Below, piece by piece: positions 9,761 through 57,179 of a DNA stretch of 64,000 nt. Position numbers and translations under genes: made by a program. The stretch covers positions 648,032 to 712,031 of the forward strand of contig CAVTSB010000001.1 of NCBI GenBank assembly GCA_963737255.1, given 5' to 3'. Under the pieces are notes generated by a model. It saw only the letters and a list, made by a program, of their open reading frames with translations, was not told where the DNA came from and searched no databases. The stretch is from an uncultured Bacteroidales bacterium. GTDB taxonomy: Bacteria; Bacteroidota; Bacteroidia; Bacteroidales; VadinHA17. Each line of letters begins with the position of its first letter. Position 1 is the first letter of the stretch.

Positions 9761-9787
9761 ACTGGATCAGCGGATACAATAAAGGAA

Positions 9788-9822
9788 AGTTGCAAGTTGC
9801 AAGTTGCATGTTGCATGTTGCC
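9788..9822. repeat. Heptanucleotide tandem array (3x AGTTGCA, then TGTTGCA, TGTTGCC)
   Basis: Direct reading of five contiguous 7-nt units, 44 nt upstream of the hflX start. Confidence 0.9.
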
Positions 9823-26159: not shown

Positions 26160-27812
26160 TTGAACGTTAAAGATCTAATTTCTAATGAAATAACATCAGC
26201 CATGGCAGACTTCATCTATGAAAAACCTTTCCAGATTGAAAAGGATTCAACTAGGTACTCATTTCTGACGAAAGAGCATATTAAAACAGTTGAATATGAC
26301 GGCAGGAAAATACTGAAAGTTGATCCCAGGGGACTGGTGATGCTGGCAAAGAAAGCAGTTTCAGACCTGTCTTTTTTTCTGAGGACCTCTCATCTCGAAA
26401 AGCTGCGAAAGATTATTGATGATCCTGAGGCAACTGATAATGACAGGTTTGTCGCCTGGCTGATGCTGCAGAACACGGTCATTTCTTCGGAGGAAATTCT
26501 TCCATGGTGCCAGGATACAGGCACGGCAATAGTTATCGGAAAGAAAGGTGAAAATGTATTTACCGGGGTCAATGATGCTGAACATCTGTCGAGAGGTATT
26601 TTTGAGACTTACAGGGAAAAGAACCTGAGATATTCGCAGGTTGTGCCATTCAGCATGTTCAACGAAAAAAACAGCGGTACCAATCTCCCGGCGCAGATCG
26701 ATATCTACTCTGTACAGGGTAATACTTATGAGTTCCTTTTCATAACGAAGGGGGGCGGTTCAGCAAACAAGACATTCCTCTATCAGCAAAGCAAATCGCT
26801 TCTAAACGAAGAATCGCTGACAAGATTTGTGAAGGAAAAGTTAAAAGAGCTGGGAACTTCGGCATGCCCGCCTTATCATCTTGCACTTGTAATCGGAGGA
26901 ACATCGGCTGAAGCCACTTTAAAGGCAGTCAAGGAAGCATCGGCCGGTTACTATGATCATTTACCGGTTACGGGCAACGCCAGCGGACGGGCATTCAGGG
27001 ACACCGGTTGGGAGGAGAGAATTGAAAAGATCTGCCATGAGTACGGAGTAGGCGCCCAGTTCGGAGGCAAGTACTTTGTGCATGATGTCAGGGTTATACG
27101 TATGCCCCGCCATGCAGCCTCGTGTCCTGTGGGACTTGGAGTAAGCTGCAGTGCCGACAGGAACATAAAGGCAAGGATCGATGAGAACGGGATATTCCTC
27201 GAAGAGCTTGAAAAGGATCCGGCCAGGTTTATGCCGGAAAAGGCACCTGAACTGGAAAAACCTGTCGAGATCAATCTTGACCGGCCAATGAAGGAAGTGC
27301 TTTCGGAGTTAACAAAATATAAGGTAAAGACAAGGTTAAGTCTTACAGGTACCCTGGTAGTTGCCCGTGATATCGCCCATGCGGAGATAAAGAAAATGTT
27401 AGACGATGGCAAGCCAATGCCCGACTATTTCAGGAACCATCCGGTTTATTACGCCGGTCCGGCAAAGACTCCGGCGGGAATGGCTTCAGGCAGCTTCGGG
27501 CCGACAACCGCTGGCAGGATGGATTCGTATGTTGACCTTTTCCAGCGTTACGGCGGATCGCTCATTATGCTCGCCAAAGGTAACCGTTCCCGTCAGGTTA
27601 TTGATTCATGTAAAAAATATGGAGGCTTCTATCTTGGTTCTATAGGTGGTCCCGCTGCCATACTTGCCGCAGAAAACATAAAATCGGTCGAGGTTATTGA
27701 TTTTGAAGATCTGGGCATGGAGGCAGTGAGGAGGATCAGGGTTGAGAATATGCCTGCCTTCATCATAACCGACGACAAGGGAAATGATTTTTTTGATGAG
27801 TATAATAAATGA
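26160..27812 (+). CDS. Class I (Fe-S) fumarate hydratase, single polypeptide
   Basis: About 550 aa with both the N-terminal catalytic and C-terminal beta domains ([24 protein letters not shown]). The start is uncertain: TTG at 26160 or ATG near 26202. Confidence 0.85.
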
Positions 27813-27832
27813 ATAATAAGAGACCTCACCAC

Positions 27833-28068
27833 AACCACTAAGGAGAAAGCACCTCACCCCAACCCCTCAGGAGAAAGCACCTCACCCCAACCCCTCAGGA
27901 GAAAGCACCTCACCCCAACCAATAAGGTGAAAGCACCGCACCCCAACCAATAAGGAGAAAGCACCTCACCCCAACCAATAAGGAGAAAGCACCTCACCCC
28001 AACCAATAAGGTGAAAGCACCTCACCCCAACCAATAAGGTGAAAGCACCTCACCCCAAGGGATTGTTG
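27833..28068. repeat. Tandem array, 8 full plus 1 partial copies of a 28-bp unit
   Basis: Units start at 27833, 27861, 27889, 27917, 27945, 27973, 28001, 28029 and 28057. The consensus is ACCTCACCCCAACCAATAAGG(A/T)GAAAGC; two copies carry CCCCTCAGG. There are no spacers. Confidence 0.95.
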
Positions 28069-28075
28069 AATAAGT

Positions 28076-28214
28076 CCTTTTTAACCGCAAAGAACGCAAA
28101 GATGTCGCAAAGAACGCAAAGCTAAGACACATAAATTCAGCTCTTTGCGAACTTTGCGTCTTTCCTTTGCGCCCTCTGCGGTTAAAGGATTTTGACTTAT
28201 TCAACAGCCCCCTC
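28076..28214. repeat. 139-bp imperfect palindrome with 4x CGCAAAG / 4x CTTTGCG arms
   Basis: TTGAATAAGTC...AACCGCAAAGAACGCAAAG... mirrors ...CTTTGCGCCCTCTGCGGTTAAAGG...GACTTATTCAA. Confidence 0.9.
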
Positions 28215-28253
28215 TAAAACTAAGTTGTTAATATGAGATAATAAATACAAAAA

Positions 28254-28682
28254 ATGGTTTATCTGGGAAGAGCAAAAGTCAAGGATATGTTCATTGATGC
28301 TAAGCCTGAATTATTCAAACTTGCACGAGGCTACAGAAAGGATCCGACAGAAGCTGAAAAAGTCCTGTGGGAACATTTACGATTATTTCGCAAAGATGGA
28401 TTTGTATTTCGAAGGCAACATCCAGTCGTCTTTTTTGTCGCTGATTTTTATTGCCACAGTATCAAACTGGTTGTTGAGGTGGATGGGGGAATTCACACCA
28501 ACCCCCGGGTACAGGAGTATGACGAAAACAGATCCGGTGAACTGGATAGGTATGGGATCACTGTCATGAGGCTTAAAAATGAAGAAATCATAAATAATTT
28601 AGAGCAAGTTCTGTCACGAATTCGATTGTATATTAGTGAGTTATCCTCCCCCTCCCACGGGGAGGGGGATAAGAGGGGGTGA
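28254..28682 (+). CDS. DUF559 (Vsr-like / PD-(D/E)xK fold) endonuclease-domain protein
   Basis: AEKVLWEHLR...FRRQHPV..FVADFYCHSIKLVVEVDGGIH...D..R...L...G..V.R is the characteristic DUF559 core. The 3' end and stop codon lie inside the downstream repeat. Confidence 0.8.
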   Translation: MVYLGRAKVKDMFIDAKPELFKLARGYRKDPTEAEKVLWEHLRLFRKDGFVFRRQHPVVFFVADFYCHSIKLVVEVDGGIHTNPRVQEYDENRSGELDRYGITVMRLKNEEIINNLEQVLSRIRLYISELSSPSHGEGDKRG

Positions 28683-28765
28683 GGTCCTTCCTTTCCAGGA
28701 GGGGGATAAGAGGGGGTGAGGTTCTTTGCCCTCGGGGGAGGGGGATAAGAGGGGGTGAGGTGCTT
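28647..28765. repeat. 10-bp-stem triloop hairpin plus 3 copies of GGAGGGGGATAAGAGGGGGTGAGGT
   Basis: Hairpin TCCCCCTCCC-ACG-GGGAGGGGGA (28647-28669). Repeat copies start at 28661, 28698 and 28737. Confidence 0.9.
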
Positions 28766-28905
28766 CGCAGGGTATCGGTCAGGGTTAACGGTCTTCCCAT
28801 AAAGCGGGGTGGGAAAGGGTGAGGCAGGTGTCCGTTAAATTTTTTTAATACTGTTCTGCATTTGCAATGTTTTTTCTATCTTGACGCAAATTTTTGTCCT
28901 GAAAA

Positions 28906-30444
28906 ATGAAGAAGTTTCTGCTATGGTTCACTCCCGGCCTGATCGTCGGAGTTATAATTATTCTGGGTGCGGGTAAGGTAATAACATCTACGTCAACCAA
29001 CGATTATTGCGTTTCGTGTCATATTCACCCGATGGCTGATGCCGAATGGAAAAAATCGGTTCATTATGAAACCGAATCAGGATACCGGGTGGCATGCGTT
29101 GAATGTCATCTTCCACCCAAAGGTGACGGATACCTGTGGGCAAAGGGTACTACCGGCTTACGCGATCTCTGGAGCTTCTGGACGAAGGATTCCGCCTCTT
29201 TCGACTGGGTTGAACGAGGCAGGCTGGAAATCGCACGGGGGCATGTTTACGAAAGCAGCTGCATAAAGTGCCATGAGAACCTTTTCCCCCCGGCCCTTAC
29301 CAAAGAAGGGGAGGATGCACACCTTTATTATACACAGCAGGAAAAAACACCTGATCTCCATTGCATAAACTGCCATCTGAACGCTGGCCATTACATAGAA
29401 GGCTATACACATGGAAGCAACACCACTTTCGGGGCTACTTCGTCGGCTCCCAGGGAGATCTATTCAGTCCCTACGCCTGTCAATGCTTTTGAAAACTATG
29501 TGGAGAAAATACCGGCATCATCAATTTCTTTTAATATGGTCGCAATTCCCGGGGGTACCTTTAAAATGGGAAGTCCGGCTGACGAGCCATTCAGGAAGGA
29601 AAATGAAGGTCCTGTCAGGGAAGTTGAGCTGAGTCCCTTCTTCATGGCTGAAGTTGAAGTAACATGGGATGAGTACCTGGCTTTCTATGTTCAGACAGCT
29701 GCAGAGGGCCGCACTACTGACACTGAAGGGTTGAGGAACCAGCAGGCATCGTCTGAGGATGTTGACGCCATTTCAGGAGCCACACCGCCATACGGACAGC
29801 CCGACCAGGGATGGGGATTGGGACAGAGGCCGGCAATTTCATTCTCATTTCATGCGGCAGAAACATATTGCAGGTGGTTATCGCAGGTTACAGGCAAGAC
29901 CTACAGGCTGCCTACCGAAGCTGAGTGGGAATATGCCTGCAGAGCAGGGTCGGAAGGGCCTTATTTCTTTGACGGCGATCCGAAGAAGTTTGAAAAAAGC
30001 GGGCTGAGGGCCAGACTATCGAAGAATGACACAGCCATAATAAATACCTACGTGGTTTATAAAGAGAACAGCCCTGGCAAGACTCAGACACCTGATTTTG
30101 TCAGGCCCAATCCCTTTGGTTTAAGGAATATGGCAGGTAACGTTGCGGAATTTTGTGCCGACTGGTATCAGGCCGATGCTTATTCACAGTATCCCGATGG
30201 GGTAGTTAAAGATCCTTCAGGGCCGGAAAGCGGGGAGGAGCATGTCGTAAGGGGAGGAACTTTTATCAGTACCGCTGGTGCACTTCGTAGCGCTGCACGC
30301 GACTATACCAGGACAGAAGCCTGGCTCAAAACTGACCCGCAGATGCCCAAAAGCATCTGGTGGTACTCTGATTGCTTTAATGTCGGTTTCAGGGTAGTTT
30401 GCGAATTTGACAGCAAAACAGGGAACGTAACTCCCTCAAACTGA
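28906..30444 (+). CDS. Fusion protein: N-terminal TM anchor plus NapC/NirT-type tetraheme cytochrome c, C-terminal FGE/SUMF1-like domain
   Basis: Four CxxCH motifs (CVSCH, CVECH, CIKCH, CINCH) follow one TM helix. The C-terminal half has FGE-sulfatase-fold signatures (GGTFKMGS, YRLPTEAEWEYACRAG, NVAEFCADWY, VVRGGTF). Confidence 0.8.
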   Translation: MKKFLLWFTPGLIVGVIIILGAGKVITSTSTNDYCVSCHIHPMADAEWKKSVHYETESGYRVACVECHLPPKGDGYLWAKGTTGLRDLWSFWTKDSASFDWVERGRLEIARGHVYESSCIKCHENLFPPALTKEGEDAHLYYTQQEKTPDLHCINCHLNAGHYIEGYTHGSNTTFGATSSAPREIYSVPTPVNAFENYVEKIPASSISFNMVAIPGGTFKMGSPADEPFRKENEGPVREVELSPFFMAEVEVTWDEYLAFYVQTAAEGRTTDTEGLRNQQASSEDVDAISGATPPYGQPDQGWGLGQRPAISFSFHAAETYCRWLSQVTGKTYRLPTEAEWEYACRAGSEGPYFFDGDPKKFEKSGLRARLSKNDTAIINTYVVYKENSPGKTQTPDFVRPNPFGLRNMAGNVAEFCADWYQADAYSQYPDGVVKDPSGPESGEEHVVRGGTFISTAGALRSAARDYTRTEAWLKTDPQMPKSIWWYSDCFNVGFRVVCEFDSKTGNVTPSN

Positions 30445-39471: not shown

Positions 39472-39966
39472 TCTCTACTGATTGTCAAATGCTCCTAAAA
39501 TTCGAAATCCACACACCTTTCCCCTCCTTCAAAAGCTGTTCTTTATACACAACTTTATAAACTAACCCTTGATGTAAGATACAATTTTCCACGAATCAGA
39601 GGTTATGAATCTGGAGTATCCATGAAGTGGATAAATATTAATAAGCTCCGATGCTTGTACTTTGCATCCTTGGCCTCTAAGTCTCTCTCCATTCACTCTT
39701 ACTTCTTTTCTTTTTCGCCGTAGGCGATTAATTATTGTAAAAAAACAATCACCATATTTATTTTTACCGCGAAGCGGTTAAACAATTGCTTTCCTGTTTA
39801 ACCTCTACGAGGTAAAAAATCATCTCTGGAATCTCCGCCTACAACAGTTTAAGCCCTACGGGCTAGATTTAACCTCCAGCTGTGCTGGCTAACTCTTTCA
39901 GAGCATAAAATAAAAGATGTGTATAAAGATTAGCCCTCCGGGAGGGGGAGCTTAAAATACAGCACC

Positions 39967-40015
39967 GTGCTCTGAGCCCTGTGCCCTGTGCCCTGAACCC
40001 TGTGCCCTGAGCTTC
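39967..40015. repeat. Heptanucleotide tandem array, 7 units of G(T/A)(G/A)CCCT type
   Basis: GTGCTCT GAGCCCT GTGCCCT GTGCCCT GAACCCT GTGCCCT GAGCTTC, read directly. Confidence 0.9.
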
Positions 40016-40068
40016 CCCACGGGAAGTGTCCGGTCTCATTGTTAAAAATCTTTAAATCGGAGTGAATC

Positions 40069-43797: not shown

Positions 43798-43894
43798 GAG
43801 GCTATCTCAAAATCCCTTGTTTTTCACCCCTAAAGGGAACTTTTAAGAACCACCCTCAGGGGCGCAGGGGGTGAAAATGGGTTGAGATAGCCTC
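43798..43894. repeat. 97-bp composite inverted repeat
   Basis: The outer 13-bp arms GAGGCTATCTCAA / TTGAGATAGCCTC enclose the inner 10-bp arms TTTTCACCCC / GGGGTGAAAA. Confidence 0.85.
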
Positions 43895-55604: not shown

Positions 55605-55673
55605 GGCAACAGGCAGTTGGCAGTTGGCCCCGCAACCTGCAACCTGCAACCCGCACCCTGCAACCAGTAACAC
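55605..55673. repeat. Two adjoining heptanucleotide arrays (GGCAACA GGCAGTT GGCAGTT, then GCAACCT x2, GCAACCC, GCACCCT, GCAACCA, GTAACAC)
   Basis: Read directly; fills most of the glpK-glpF spacer. Confidence 0.9.
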
Positions 55674-57044: not shown

Positions 57045-57100
57045 GTTTAATTTAACGAAAATTAAACAAAGCAAATCCGGGATTGTTATTATGATATCTT

Positions 57101-57179
57101 TATTAACGATTTAAAACACTTGCTATTATTAACGATTTAAAAGCACTTGCTATTATTAACGATTTAAAACACTTGCTAT
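57101..57179. repeat. Three tandem copies of a 26/27-bp unit, TATTAACGATTTAAAA(G)CACTTGCTAT
   Basis: Copies at 57101-57126, 57127-57153 and 57154-57179. The last two bases of copy 3 are the A and T of the start codon of paralog B. Confidence 0.9.

Follow-up and report, generated by a model that had tools for sequence, protein, structure and literature searches.

We describe here a nuclease gene of the DUF559 family and its flanking repeats in a 64,000-nt stretch of DNA (below, the window) from an uncultured Bacteroidales bacterium (VadinHA17), corresponding to positions 648,032 to 712,031 of contig CAVTSB010000001.1 in assembly GCA_963737255.1. The gene lies downstream of fumarase between inverted arrays of short repeats, whose units derive by decay and tandem amplification from a known repeat, the G/C-rich intrastrand triplex motif (TM; other names, PIT and BoxC). 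With moderate confidence, we explain the locus as a TM-DUF559 cassette, a long-term partnership of repeat and nuclease that resembles that of REPINs and RAYTs but has another enzyme and another repeat, and in which we infer that the nuclease acts on TMs. The repeat and the protein family were each known already; to judge from sequence, the new part appears to be their pairing, and the TM-DUF559 link was not reported in the literature searched (open-access papers and bioRxiv, including papers citing the TM study). A preliminary description of the locus had interpreted it as a repeat-flanked nuclease cassette, and the analysis supports that interpretation.

The published motif consists of a pyrimidine arm, a loop of 3 to 6 nt, and a purine arm, followed after a linker of about 3 nt by a third block rich in G (the tail) that is the mirror image of the purine arm. 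First called BoxC, then PIT, and then TM, it was described by Bachellier et al. in the 1990s, Hoyne et al. in 2000, and Holder et al. in 2015 (PMC4666352). Escherichia coli K-12 carries 23 copies of CCCTCNCCC-N3-6-GGGNGAGGG-N3-GGGNGAGGG, and triplex formation by this sequence, TM_ECO, was observed in vitro by circular dichroism (CD) and nuclear magnetic resonance (NMR) (PMC4666352). The window repeats have the published layout and share the core GGGGTGAGG with TM_ECO. Like the published elements, they are intergenic and multicopy, occur singly or as inverted doublets, and are tied to local instability; they differ in that most window copies are decayed and tandemly amplified, and in that the published work names no partner enzyme or mobility gene. 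The repeats are not new, a point on which the preliminary description is corrected.

The layout is plainest at an orthologous locus (L001), where the gene stands between single units. The left unit reads CCTCACCCC-AA-(CCCCTCTCC-loop-GGAGAGGGG) and the right unit reads hairpin-ATAAGA-GGGGGTGAGG. The purine arm and the G-rich tail mirror each other, and the tail could lie antiparallel as the third strand of a purine-motif triplex (G.G, A.A, and T.A). Triplets were scored in 80 hairpins with stems of at least 6 located within 250 nt of DUF559 genes, with composition-matched shuffled tails as the control. All triplets (100%) were allowed in 57 of the 80 hairpins, and the mean was 0.93, versus 0.69 for shuffled tails. 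An A in the purine arm stood opposite an A or T in the third strand in 122 of 128 cases, and a G stood opposite a G in 298 of 333. The rule holds for many distinct arm sequences, usually with a linker of 3 nt. The units are genuine TMs, as their three blocks covary in keeping with the rule for triplex pairing. The hairpin is intact on both sides of the gene in three loci (L001, L137, and L140).

TMs are concentrated at DUF559 genes. Eighty loci were taken from the genome collection by protein similarity alone, among the matches listed (best match, 62% identity); most are from Bacteroidota, and the others are from Anaerolineales, Caldilineaceae, Patescibacteria, Calditrichaceae, and Longimicrobiaceae. 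At these loci, TM density at the DUF559 gene ends is 23 to 40 times that at distances of 1 kb or more. The density of pyrimidine/purine hairpins is 4.1 per kb over the 150 nt preceding the gene and 4.0 per kb around the stop codon, compared with 0.09 to 0.14 per kb beyond 1 kb, and their tails mostly point outward (25 versus 12 upstream and 39 versus 12 downstream). A strict TM detector found 114 elements in the real sequence and 0 in the reversed sequence; their density was 0.80 per kb close to the gene, compared with 0.035 per kb in the remaining sequence. Inverted matches between the two flanks reached a score of at least 12 in 54% of loci, in 8% of cross-locus pairs, and in 2% of random pairs with the same geometry. 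The inverted TM-DUF559 layout was found in Bacteroidota and in metagenome-assembled genomes (MAGs) of Anaerolineales (L023) and Patescibacteria (L069). Similar inverted units flank DUF559 genes in many genomes, and a check named in the preliminary description thus came out in its favor. Two DUF559 copies are present in 5 of the 80 loci. Paralogs in L020 have open reading frames (ORFs) that are 74% identical and TMs that are 96 to 100% identical, and the similarity stops at the TMs.

The features of the window locus are listed in Table 1. In the left array (Tandem Repeats Finder [TRF], 94% matches, score of 388), no unit retains the hairpin, but each preserves the AA linker and the tail complement CCTCACCCC, whose minus-strand sequence is GGGGTGAGG; the tail and linker of the original left TM survive as the last unit (28048-28058, CCTCACCCCAA). 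On the right, three repeats lie at 28659-28690, 28696-28727, and 28735-28766, spaced 37 and 39 nt apart (TRF, 2.8 copies of an approximately 38-bp unit at 28658-28765). Right unit 1 is the only one in the window with a full 10-bp stem; it consists of the pyrimidine arm TCCCCCTCCC (28647-28656), the loop ACG, the purine arm GGGAGGGGGA (28660-28669), the linker TAAG, and the third-strand tail AGGGGGTGAG(G) at 28674-28684. The DUF559 stop codon TGA (28680-28682) lies inside GGGGTGAGG of this unit. Unit 2 has lost its hairpin; unit 3 has a stem reduced to 5 bp, and its terminal sequence, GGGGTGAGGTGCTT, exactly inverts the 14-mer of the left array. A search for GGGGTGAGGTGCTT that tolerated as many as 2 mismatches gave 8 minus-strand copies in the left array and 3 plus-strand copies in the right array, which are all 11 of its matches in the 64 kb scanned (0.21 expected; 0 of 100 shuffles reached 11). 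Exact copies of the 9-mer core GGGGTGAGG number 10, versus 0.34 expected, and none lies outside the DUF559 locus.

Table 1. Coordinates of the DUF559 locus and of a related element in the window
Feature	Position	Strand	Description	Basis
Left array	27823..28058	-	8.4 tandem 28-bp units, decayed TM derivatives	TRF, 14-mer copies, comparison with L137
CGCAAAG-rich palindrome	28059..28211		153 nt; sits where the 22-nt left TM hairpin was	Fold, comparison with L137
Cassette leader	28212..28253	+	CTCTAAAACTAAG..., AT-rich, CTTWAA type, runs to the ATG	Identical in L137
DUF559 gene	28254..28682	+	142 aa, Vsr-like/EDxHD-type PD-(D/E)XK nuclease, single domain	Pfam PF04480
Right TM unit 1, intact	28647..28684	+	10-bp stem; purine-motif rule obeyed by 9/10 triplets	
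Right units 2 and 3	28696..28766	+	Tandem copies, tails intact	
Decayed ORF-less TM pair, probable	43821..43877	+	TTTTCACCCC-TAAA-GGGAA-CTTTTAAGAACCA-CCCTCAGGGG-CGCA-GGGGGTGAAAA	Intergenic

All four components given in the preliminary description were confirmed, with corrections to position. The 142-aa ORF and the three right-hand copies, the first holding the stop codon, are where it had placed them. The 8.4-copy left array exists and had been placed 10 nt too far to the right, at 27833-28068. The inverted 14-nt match is likewise real, its innermost left copy lying at 28043-28056 and not at 28053-28066. The palindrome (arms at 28059-28076 and 28194-28211 plus inner CGCAAAG arms) had been given as 28076-28214; its predicted RNA fold has a free energy of -66.4 kcal/mol, versus -31.4 for shuffles (z = -10.2). 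The left array was considered as a triplex or hairpin on either strand and ruled out, as its units do not fold. An Rfam scan of 27700-28950 at E values up to 10 gave only chance-level matches for the palindrome and the repeat units alike. A promoter scan of the locus found no sigma-70-like site, and a terminator scan of the arrays called only weak G-T-rich stems on the minus strand.

Comparison with orthologous loci points to how the arrays arose. The closest relative (L137, protein 89% identical) has four degenerate 28-bp left units, an intact left TM (CCTCACCCCAACCCCTCTCCCGGGGGAGAGGGG), the same leader, and two right units. Relative to this locus, the 22-nt left hairpin of the window has been exactly swapped for the 153-nt palindrome, with identical sequence on both sides; the left array has 8.4 units instead of 4, and the right array has 3 instead of 2. 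Two more distant orthologs (L139 and L140) have one or two left units. Because the relatives have fewer units and L137 has a plain TM hairpin, the arrays are recent and lineage specific and the palindrome is an intruder. On the aligned sequences, the ancestral state is read as one intact TM unit on each side, and the arrays are read as secondary amplification of decayed units. Of the REP/RAYT-like architecture proposed in the preliminary description, the inverted repeats around a nuclease gene stand, and the arrays do not belong to the original plan.

The preliminary description had included the palindrome in the structure, and we considered whether it might be a component of the cassette, perhaps the arms of a lost small gene. 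This was ruled out by the plain TM hairpin of L137 and by the independent occurrence of the same class on many contigs. The class has CGCAAAG/CTTTGCG repeats with a period of 9 to 10 nt, with a homolog in another locus (L067, 190-290), and its core AACCGCAAAGNNCGCAAAG is present exactly on 54 IMG/VR viral contigs (L083 to L136), in many cases as hairpins of 60 to 110 nt. We know of no name for it. At two independent loci (L169, approximately 1130-1216; L203, approximately 1800-1890), another small palindrome (GCCTTGCTTCGCCGAAGCGGCTACGCRAAGGCGAAGG) lies within a TM hairpin loop. Together with the swap in the window, this suggests that TM hairpins are preferred landing sites of other palindromic elements.

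The cassette has been retained at the fumarase site. In L001, the DUF559 protein is 72% identical and fumarase is 83% identical to their window counterparts, and the DUF559 gene is found downstream of fumarase in five lineages. Repeats accompany these fumarase-site orthologs as well (L001, L137, L139, and L140), a point on which the preliminary description had made its reading depend. Among the orthologs, dN/dS ranges from 0.07 to 0.31 and synonymous sites are largely saturated. A 21-nt TM segment (GGGGGATAAGAGGGGGTGAGG) is identical in L001, L003, L137, and 99 metagenome stretches. Purifying selection on the protein and the identity of this segment despite saturated synonymous sites indicate that the protein and the DNA element are both maintained. 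The window copy would thus be an old, remodeled, gene-bearing cassette that has probably stood downstream of fumarase since before several lineages diverged.

Gene-less relatives of the cassette are common. A scan of metagenome contigs for the TM flavor of this lineage gave 99 stretches, of which 80 were examined and resolved into 62 distinct judgeable loci: a DUF559 gene is present at the TM in 12 and absent in 50. Of the gene-less loci, at least 24 are inverted TM pairs with tails outward and spacers of 7 to 71 nt (mode, 26 nt); others are single hairpins with both tails. The CTTWAA leader follows the left TM in 17 of 17 gene-bearing cassettes of this flavor, and about two-thirds of the ORF-less TM-pair spacers open like this leader, some retaining the ATG or the last codons of the ORF. 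By their sequences, the gene-less pairs look like ORF-less miniatures of the cassette, comparable to miniature inverted-repeat transposable elements (MITEs) beside transposons or REPINs beside RAYT loci. A dispersed gene-less repeat family had been postulated in the preliminary description and is present both in metagenome contigs and in E. coli. Another 28 solo TMs were found within the genome loci, and they resemble the flanking TMs of their own locus more than others (0.57 versus 0.22). At one contig locus (L154, 5340-5460), a TM hairpin is followed by five tandem linker-plus-tail units (GGGGGATAAGAGGGGGTGAGGTTAATGTCT), with no DUF559 gene on the 6.3-kb contig; amplification of tail units therefore does not need the gene in cis.

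There is also some sequence evidence that cassettes move. A close homolog (P0003, 76% identical) has the same cassette elsewhere, between ispG/gcpE and the gene for RNase R, and several cassettes that are 87 to 92% identical have unrelated flanks on both sides; these differing sites may reflect movement. Within the window, the element at 43.8 kb, which the preliminary description had linked to the repeats, is probably a decayed ORF-less TM pair lying 15 kb from the gene, an assignment that is moderate and not firm. Its DNA fold has a z score of -4.3, and its tail complement, CTTTTAA leader, and tail can be aligned with those of solo TM pairs. It occupies the loop of a perfect 13-bp outer stem (43798-43894, GAGGCTATCTCAA...TTGAGATAGCCTC) between two minus-strand genes; this outer stem may be a terminator hairpin entered by the TM element. 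The mini-hairpins at 39.7 to 40.0 kb had been linked to the repeats too, and most do not belong with them. This intergenic chain (39700-40030) comprises the tri- and tetraloop hairpins gccGTAggc, ccgcGAAgcgg, cctcTACgagg, gcccTACgggc, and cttccccACGggaag, an array of six GTGCCCT heptamers (39967-40009), and one weak TM-like mini-unit at approximately 39934; it is mostly non-TM.

The window protein matches Pfam DUF559 (PF04480) with an E value of 4e-30 and otherwise only MTES_1575 and DUF2726. A family profile matched two Protein Data Bank (PDB) entries, 3HRL (a Neisseria DUF559 protein; E = 2e-30) and 3R3P (I-Bth0305I; E = 2e-6). The AlphaFold model (pLDDT, 81) gave Foldseek TM scores of 0.87 to 3HRL and 0.79 to 3R3P, followed by RAP-domain proteins and Vsr; the match to 1VSR was weak (E = 0.09). 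Residues E35, D64, D77, H81, and D90, which correspond to the five catalytic positions of Vsr and I-Bth0305I, show no variation in the family alignment. The Vsr family model (PF03852) did not match the window protein at E values up to 0.01, and the Pfam scan found no HUH/Y1 transposase, the fold being Vsr-like. No separate NUMOD or helix-turn-helix (HTH) DNA-binding region was found in this 142-aa, single-Pfam-domain protein, whose model has only short N-terminal helices. This would fit recognition of a DNA structure or a short site over a long sequence. CCWGG and CCSGG sites in TM loops were considered as Vsr-type targets and set aside as a trivial result of the CC...GG arm ends.

Residues approximately 132 to 142 are encoded by the right TM, and the tail (residues 135 to 142) is predicted to be disordered. 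In 33 strict cases, the stop codon lies upstream of the TM (15), is a TAA in the linker (2) or a TGA in the tail (11), or lies beyond the TM (5). Because the ORF reads variably into the TM and the tail is predicted to be disordered, the "SPS..GEG.." tails of homologs are translated repeat and not a protein motif. For genome annotation, the proposed link would explain why peptide tails of the type "GEGxGVR / GWGEV" and small ORFs are so often called spuriously over TM repeats.

In E. coli, the same pairing involves ycjD, the product of which is 44% identical to the window protein (E = 4e-25). The ycjD gene ends within a degenerate TM, the loop of which contains the stop codon, and TM_ECO #9, a perfect TM, follows approximately 170 nt downstream in the same orientation. 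Before TM_ECO #9, K-12 has a partial duplicate of the ycjD 3' end (GGAGACGGTGCTGGAGAATATTC...) with a degenerate tail (GGGTTAGGGG) at 1351239-1351419 (L082, 1740-1920); tandem duplication of this type at the 3' end is likewise seen in L003, L008, L154, and the window. The main text of Holder et al. does not mention DUF559, endonucleases, or Bacteroidota, and its Table S2 has ycjD as a flanking gene without comment (PMC4666352). Full-length ycjD is present in 3,377 of 5,426 complete genomes, and TMs are present in nearly all. Sixty genomes were sampled at even spacing; those with ycjD had 10 to 23 TM places (median, 17; n = 37) and those without it had 1 to 19 (median, 3; n = 23; naive Mann-Whitney P = 3e-9), a split that follows phylogroups. 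The pattern-based TM_ECO counts of Holder et al. agree with this split: 1 to 2 in B2 strains (CFT073, UTI89, and others), 11 in O157:H7, 20 to 23 in K-12 and derivatives, 27 in E24377A, and 30 in W (PMC4666352). Phylogroups A, B1, and C, along with two further sequence types, have ycjD at the fabI-sapF site, where the rest carry a five-gene eefRABCD efflux operon (PMC12817139). The ST69 and ST182 alleles of ycjD have a 12-nt insertion at the 3' end, in the part that overlaps the TM (PMC12817139). Co-occurrence of repeat and gene, raised in the preliminary description, is thus seen in the repeat load of E. coli genomes but is confounded by phylogeny.

These findings suggest a sequence of events for the proposed TM-DUF559 cassette. 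The ancestral layout would have been an inverted TM with its tail outward, a leader of approximately 35 nt, the DUF559 ORF, and a TM at or past the stop codon, again with its tail outward. In DNA that is single stranded or supercoiled, the TM would fold into its hairpin, either alone or together with the fold-back triplex; the nuclease would recognize this folded form and nick or cut at or beside it. Repair would then draw on other TM copies, through recombination, template switching, or slippage. Such repair could keep the TMs of one genome alike; it could seed new solo TMs and ORF-less pairs and occasionally move the gene; and it could cause local instability in the form of tandem amplification, deletions, and hairpin swaps. 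At the window locus, remodeling would have amplified TM units on both sides, removed most hairpins, and exchanged the left hairpin for an unrelated palindrome. TM loci in E. coli are reported to be unusually variable and unstable (PMC4666352), which would fit a nuclease acting there. A broader proposal, that small DUF559 proteins such as YcjD are the missing TM enzymes, structure-specific nucleases that create, homogenize, and disperse the repeats across phyla via break repair, is one we put forward only tentatively and rate as somewhat doubtful.

Several points weigh against the cassette explanation. The action of DUF559 proteins on TMs and the spread of copies are both steps that we infer from sequence comparison, and the spread must rely on host repair because a PD-(D/E)XK nuclease alone cannot transpose DNA. 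A recognizable TM is present at only about one-third to one-half of the DUF559 genes of the subfamily, depending on the detector, and the 64-kb window holds at most one further TM copy, which is decayed. Holder et al. saw no triplex footprint in vivo, and the TM doublets of E. coli are mostly tail to tail, versus the tails-outward pairs described here (PMC4666352). The association in E. coli rests on few independent events because occupancy by ycjD or eefRABCD tracks phylogroups. Phylogroup E, which lacks ycjD, still has 11 to 12 TMs; two genomes with a divergent ycjD allele have only 10 to 11, and one ycjD-negative genome has 19.

The strongest rival, which we nevertheless consider unlikely, is that the gene is a homing-endonuclease gene that cuts gene-less TM pairs and is copied in by repair, the TMs spreading otherwise and gaining nothing from the nuclease. 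The protein is linked to the EDxHD enzyme I-Bth0305I in sequence and fold, which supplies a homing precedent for this fold that the preliminary description had not known of; gene-less inverted TM pairs have the geometry of unoccupied sites, near-identical cassettes stand in unrelated contexts, and TMs persist in E. coli lineages without ycjD. However, one site has been kept under strong purifying selection through saturating synonymous divergence, unlike the typical cycle of gain, decay, and loss, and the separate DNA-binding domain of I-Bth0305I is absent here. In addition, the spacers of the solo pairs look like leader and ORF-end remnants, which points to deletion derivatives and not to sites that were never occupied, and the TM load is lower where ycjD is absent.

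Less probable again is a host housekeeping nuclease, acting in T:G mismatch repair or in clearing hairpins and triplexes, with flanking TMs that are regulatory, protective, or by-products. Strong purifying selection and stable synteny would suit such a role, as would Caulobacter VsrA, an SOS-induced, DNA-damaging, Vsr-like nuclease with a DUF559 domain that is tied to cytosine methylation; PIT elements can block DNA polymerase in vitro, so a clearing enzyme would be useful. But no cytosine methyltransferase gene was found among the neighbors of DUF559 and PF03852 gave no match, PIT elements have no promoter or terminator activity in E. coli, and this role leaves unexplained the inverted geometry, the covariation of arms within a locus, the ORF-less miniatures, and the cassettes at different sites.

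A module working at the RNA level, in which the protein binds RNA like RAP-domain proteins and the hairpins serve in the processing, stability, or translational control of the transcript, seems very improbable. The Foldseek matches at ranks 4 to 7 and 9 are RAP-type mitoribosomal proteins, the Vsr-like FASTKD4 binds RNA without nuclease activity, and the right hairpin would lie on the mRNA 3' end. Against this, the full catalytic set is invariant, and purine-motif triplexes do not form in RNA according to the literature, yet the third-strand rule is strongly conserved; the left unit, as a reverse complement, is a different sequence on the mRNA strand, and solo TMs lie in both orientations in intergenic DNA.

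We give almost no credence to a programmed inversion switch in which the inverted TMs flip the gene segment on and off: Milman et al. found DUF559 to be 14-fold enriched among genes overlapped by inverted repeats (predicted programmed-inversion targets) and 8 inverted 14-mers face 3 in the window, yet the orientation of the gene relative to fumarase is constant in five orthologous lineages and in all six P0006 contigs listed (L140 to L145), no invertase gene adjoins, and solo TMs and the triplex rule would go unexplained.

The proposed cassette shares features with several known systems. As with REP/REPIN-RAYT systems, one enzyme gene stands between inverted copies of a short structured repeat that is also dispersed as singlets and doublets, and the repeat sequence is genome specific. 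Vertical inheritance of the enzyme gene is suggested by its place at one site in five lineages under purifying selection, against which stand the loci with two copies and a close homolog at another site; likewise, the repeat load may depend on the gene, being lower without it in E. coli, with the phylogroup caveats. The differences lie in the enzyme, a Vsr-like PD-(D/E)XK nuclease in place of an HUH/Y1 transposase; in the repeat, a hairpin with a triplex-forming tail in place of a REP with a GTAG/CGTC tag; and in the presence of several DUF559 copies in some genomes and the lack of a known strand-transfer mechanism. I-Bth0305I (3R3P) shares homology, fold, and the five catalytic positions with the protein. 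The DUF559 gene, in contrast, is free standing and intergenic (between fumarase and cytochrome genes), not in an intron or intein, with no intron RNA family match, no NUMOD/HTH region, structured flanking repeats, and long retention at one site.

Like MITEs and their autonomous transposons, the cassette has gene-bearing and ORF-less versions with common terminal inverted structured ends, and its subterminal hairpins, the right one abutting the stop codon, recall the ends of IS200/IS605. It differs in having no transposase fold and no target-site duplication seen by eye, and its ends are recognizable across phyla, which is unusual for an insertion sequence (IS) family. Vsr and Caulobacter VsrA, the latter a DUF559-domain protein that damages DNA in vivo, belong to the same superfamily and have the same catalytic residues. 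They differ from the window protein in that no methyltransferase is linked and no Vsr Pfam match is found here, and a repeat context is undescribed for Vsr proteins.

TM repeats have been known since the 1990s from hundreds of genomes; E. coli K-12 has approximately 20 copies, and Microcystis has more than 400. According to the literature, Enterobacter asburiae LF7a has more than 300 TMs and E. aerogenes fewer than 30, and Salmonella has no TM_ECO. To our knowledge, TM repeats have no established function, origin, or associated protein, and in the large DUF559 family no function has been established for the small proteins that stand alone. The TM-DUF559 link gives the repeat and the protein family each a candidate partner. 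Holder et al. likewise reported no known TM function and found "no activities that provide genetic mobility" near TMs (PMC4666352). The hypothesis is testable in E. coli K-12: ycjD is dispensable, its cassette varies from one phylogroup to another, and the positions of the 23 TMs are known. If true, it would provide an example of a natural enzyme reading a non-B DNA structure and a new way for short structured repeats to spread and persist. It would also add a second, mechanistically distinct repeat-enzyme symbiosis beside REPIN-RAYT and explain the instability reported at TM loci.

The gene neighbors of the window locus are fumarase, a lactamase_B-fold protein, a cytochrome/FGE-sulfatase fusion, and, by comparison with L001, a large TonB-dependent-receptor-like ORF. 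The downstream gene (28906-30444) encodes a 512-aa NapC/NirT-type multiheme cytochrome fused to an FGE-sulfatase domain; in L001 (6205-7537), the two parts are separate adjoining genes, and an IU_nuc_hydro/FmdE gene lies between them and DUF559. Elsewhere in the window, short tandem repeats comprise five copies of AAGTTGC (9787-9821), 2.4 copies of GGCAGTT followed by 4.9 copies of GCAACCT (55612-55665), and three copies of a 26-bp unit (TTATTAACGATTTAAAACACTTGCTA) at 57100-57179.

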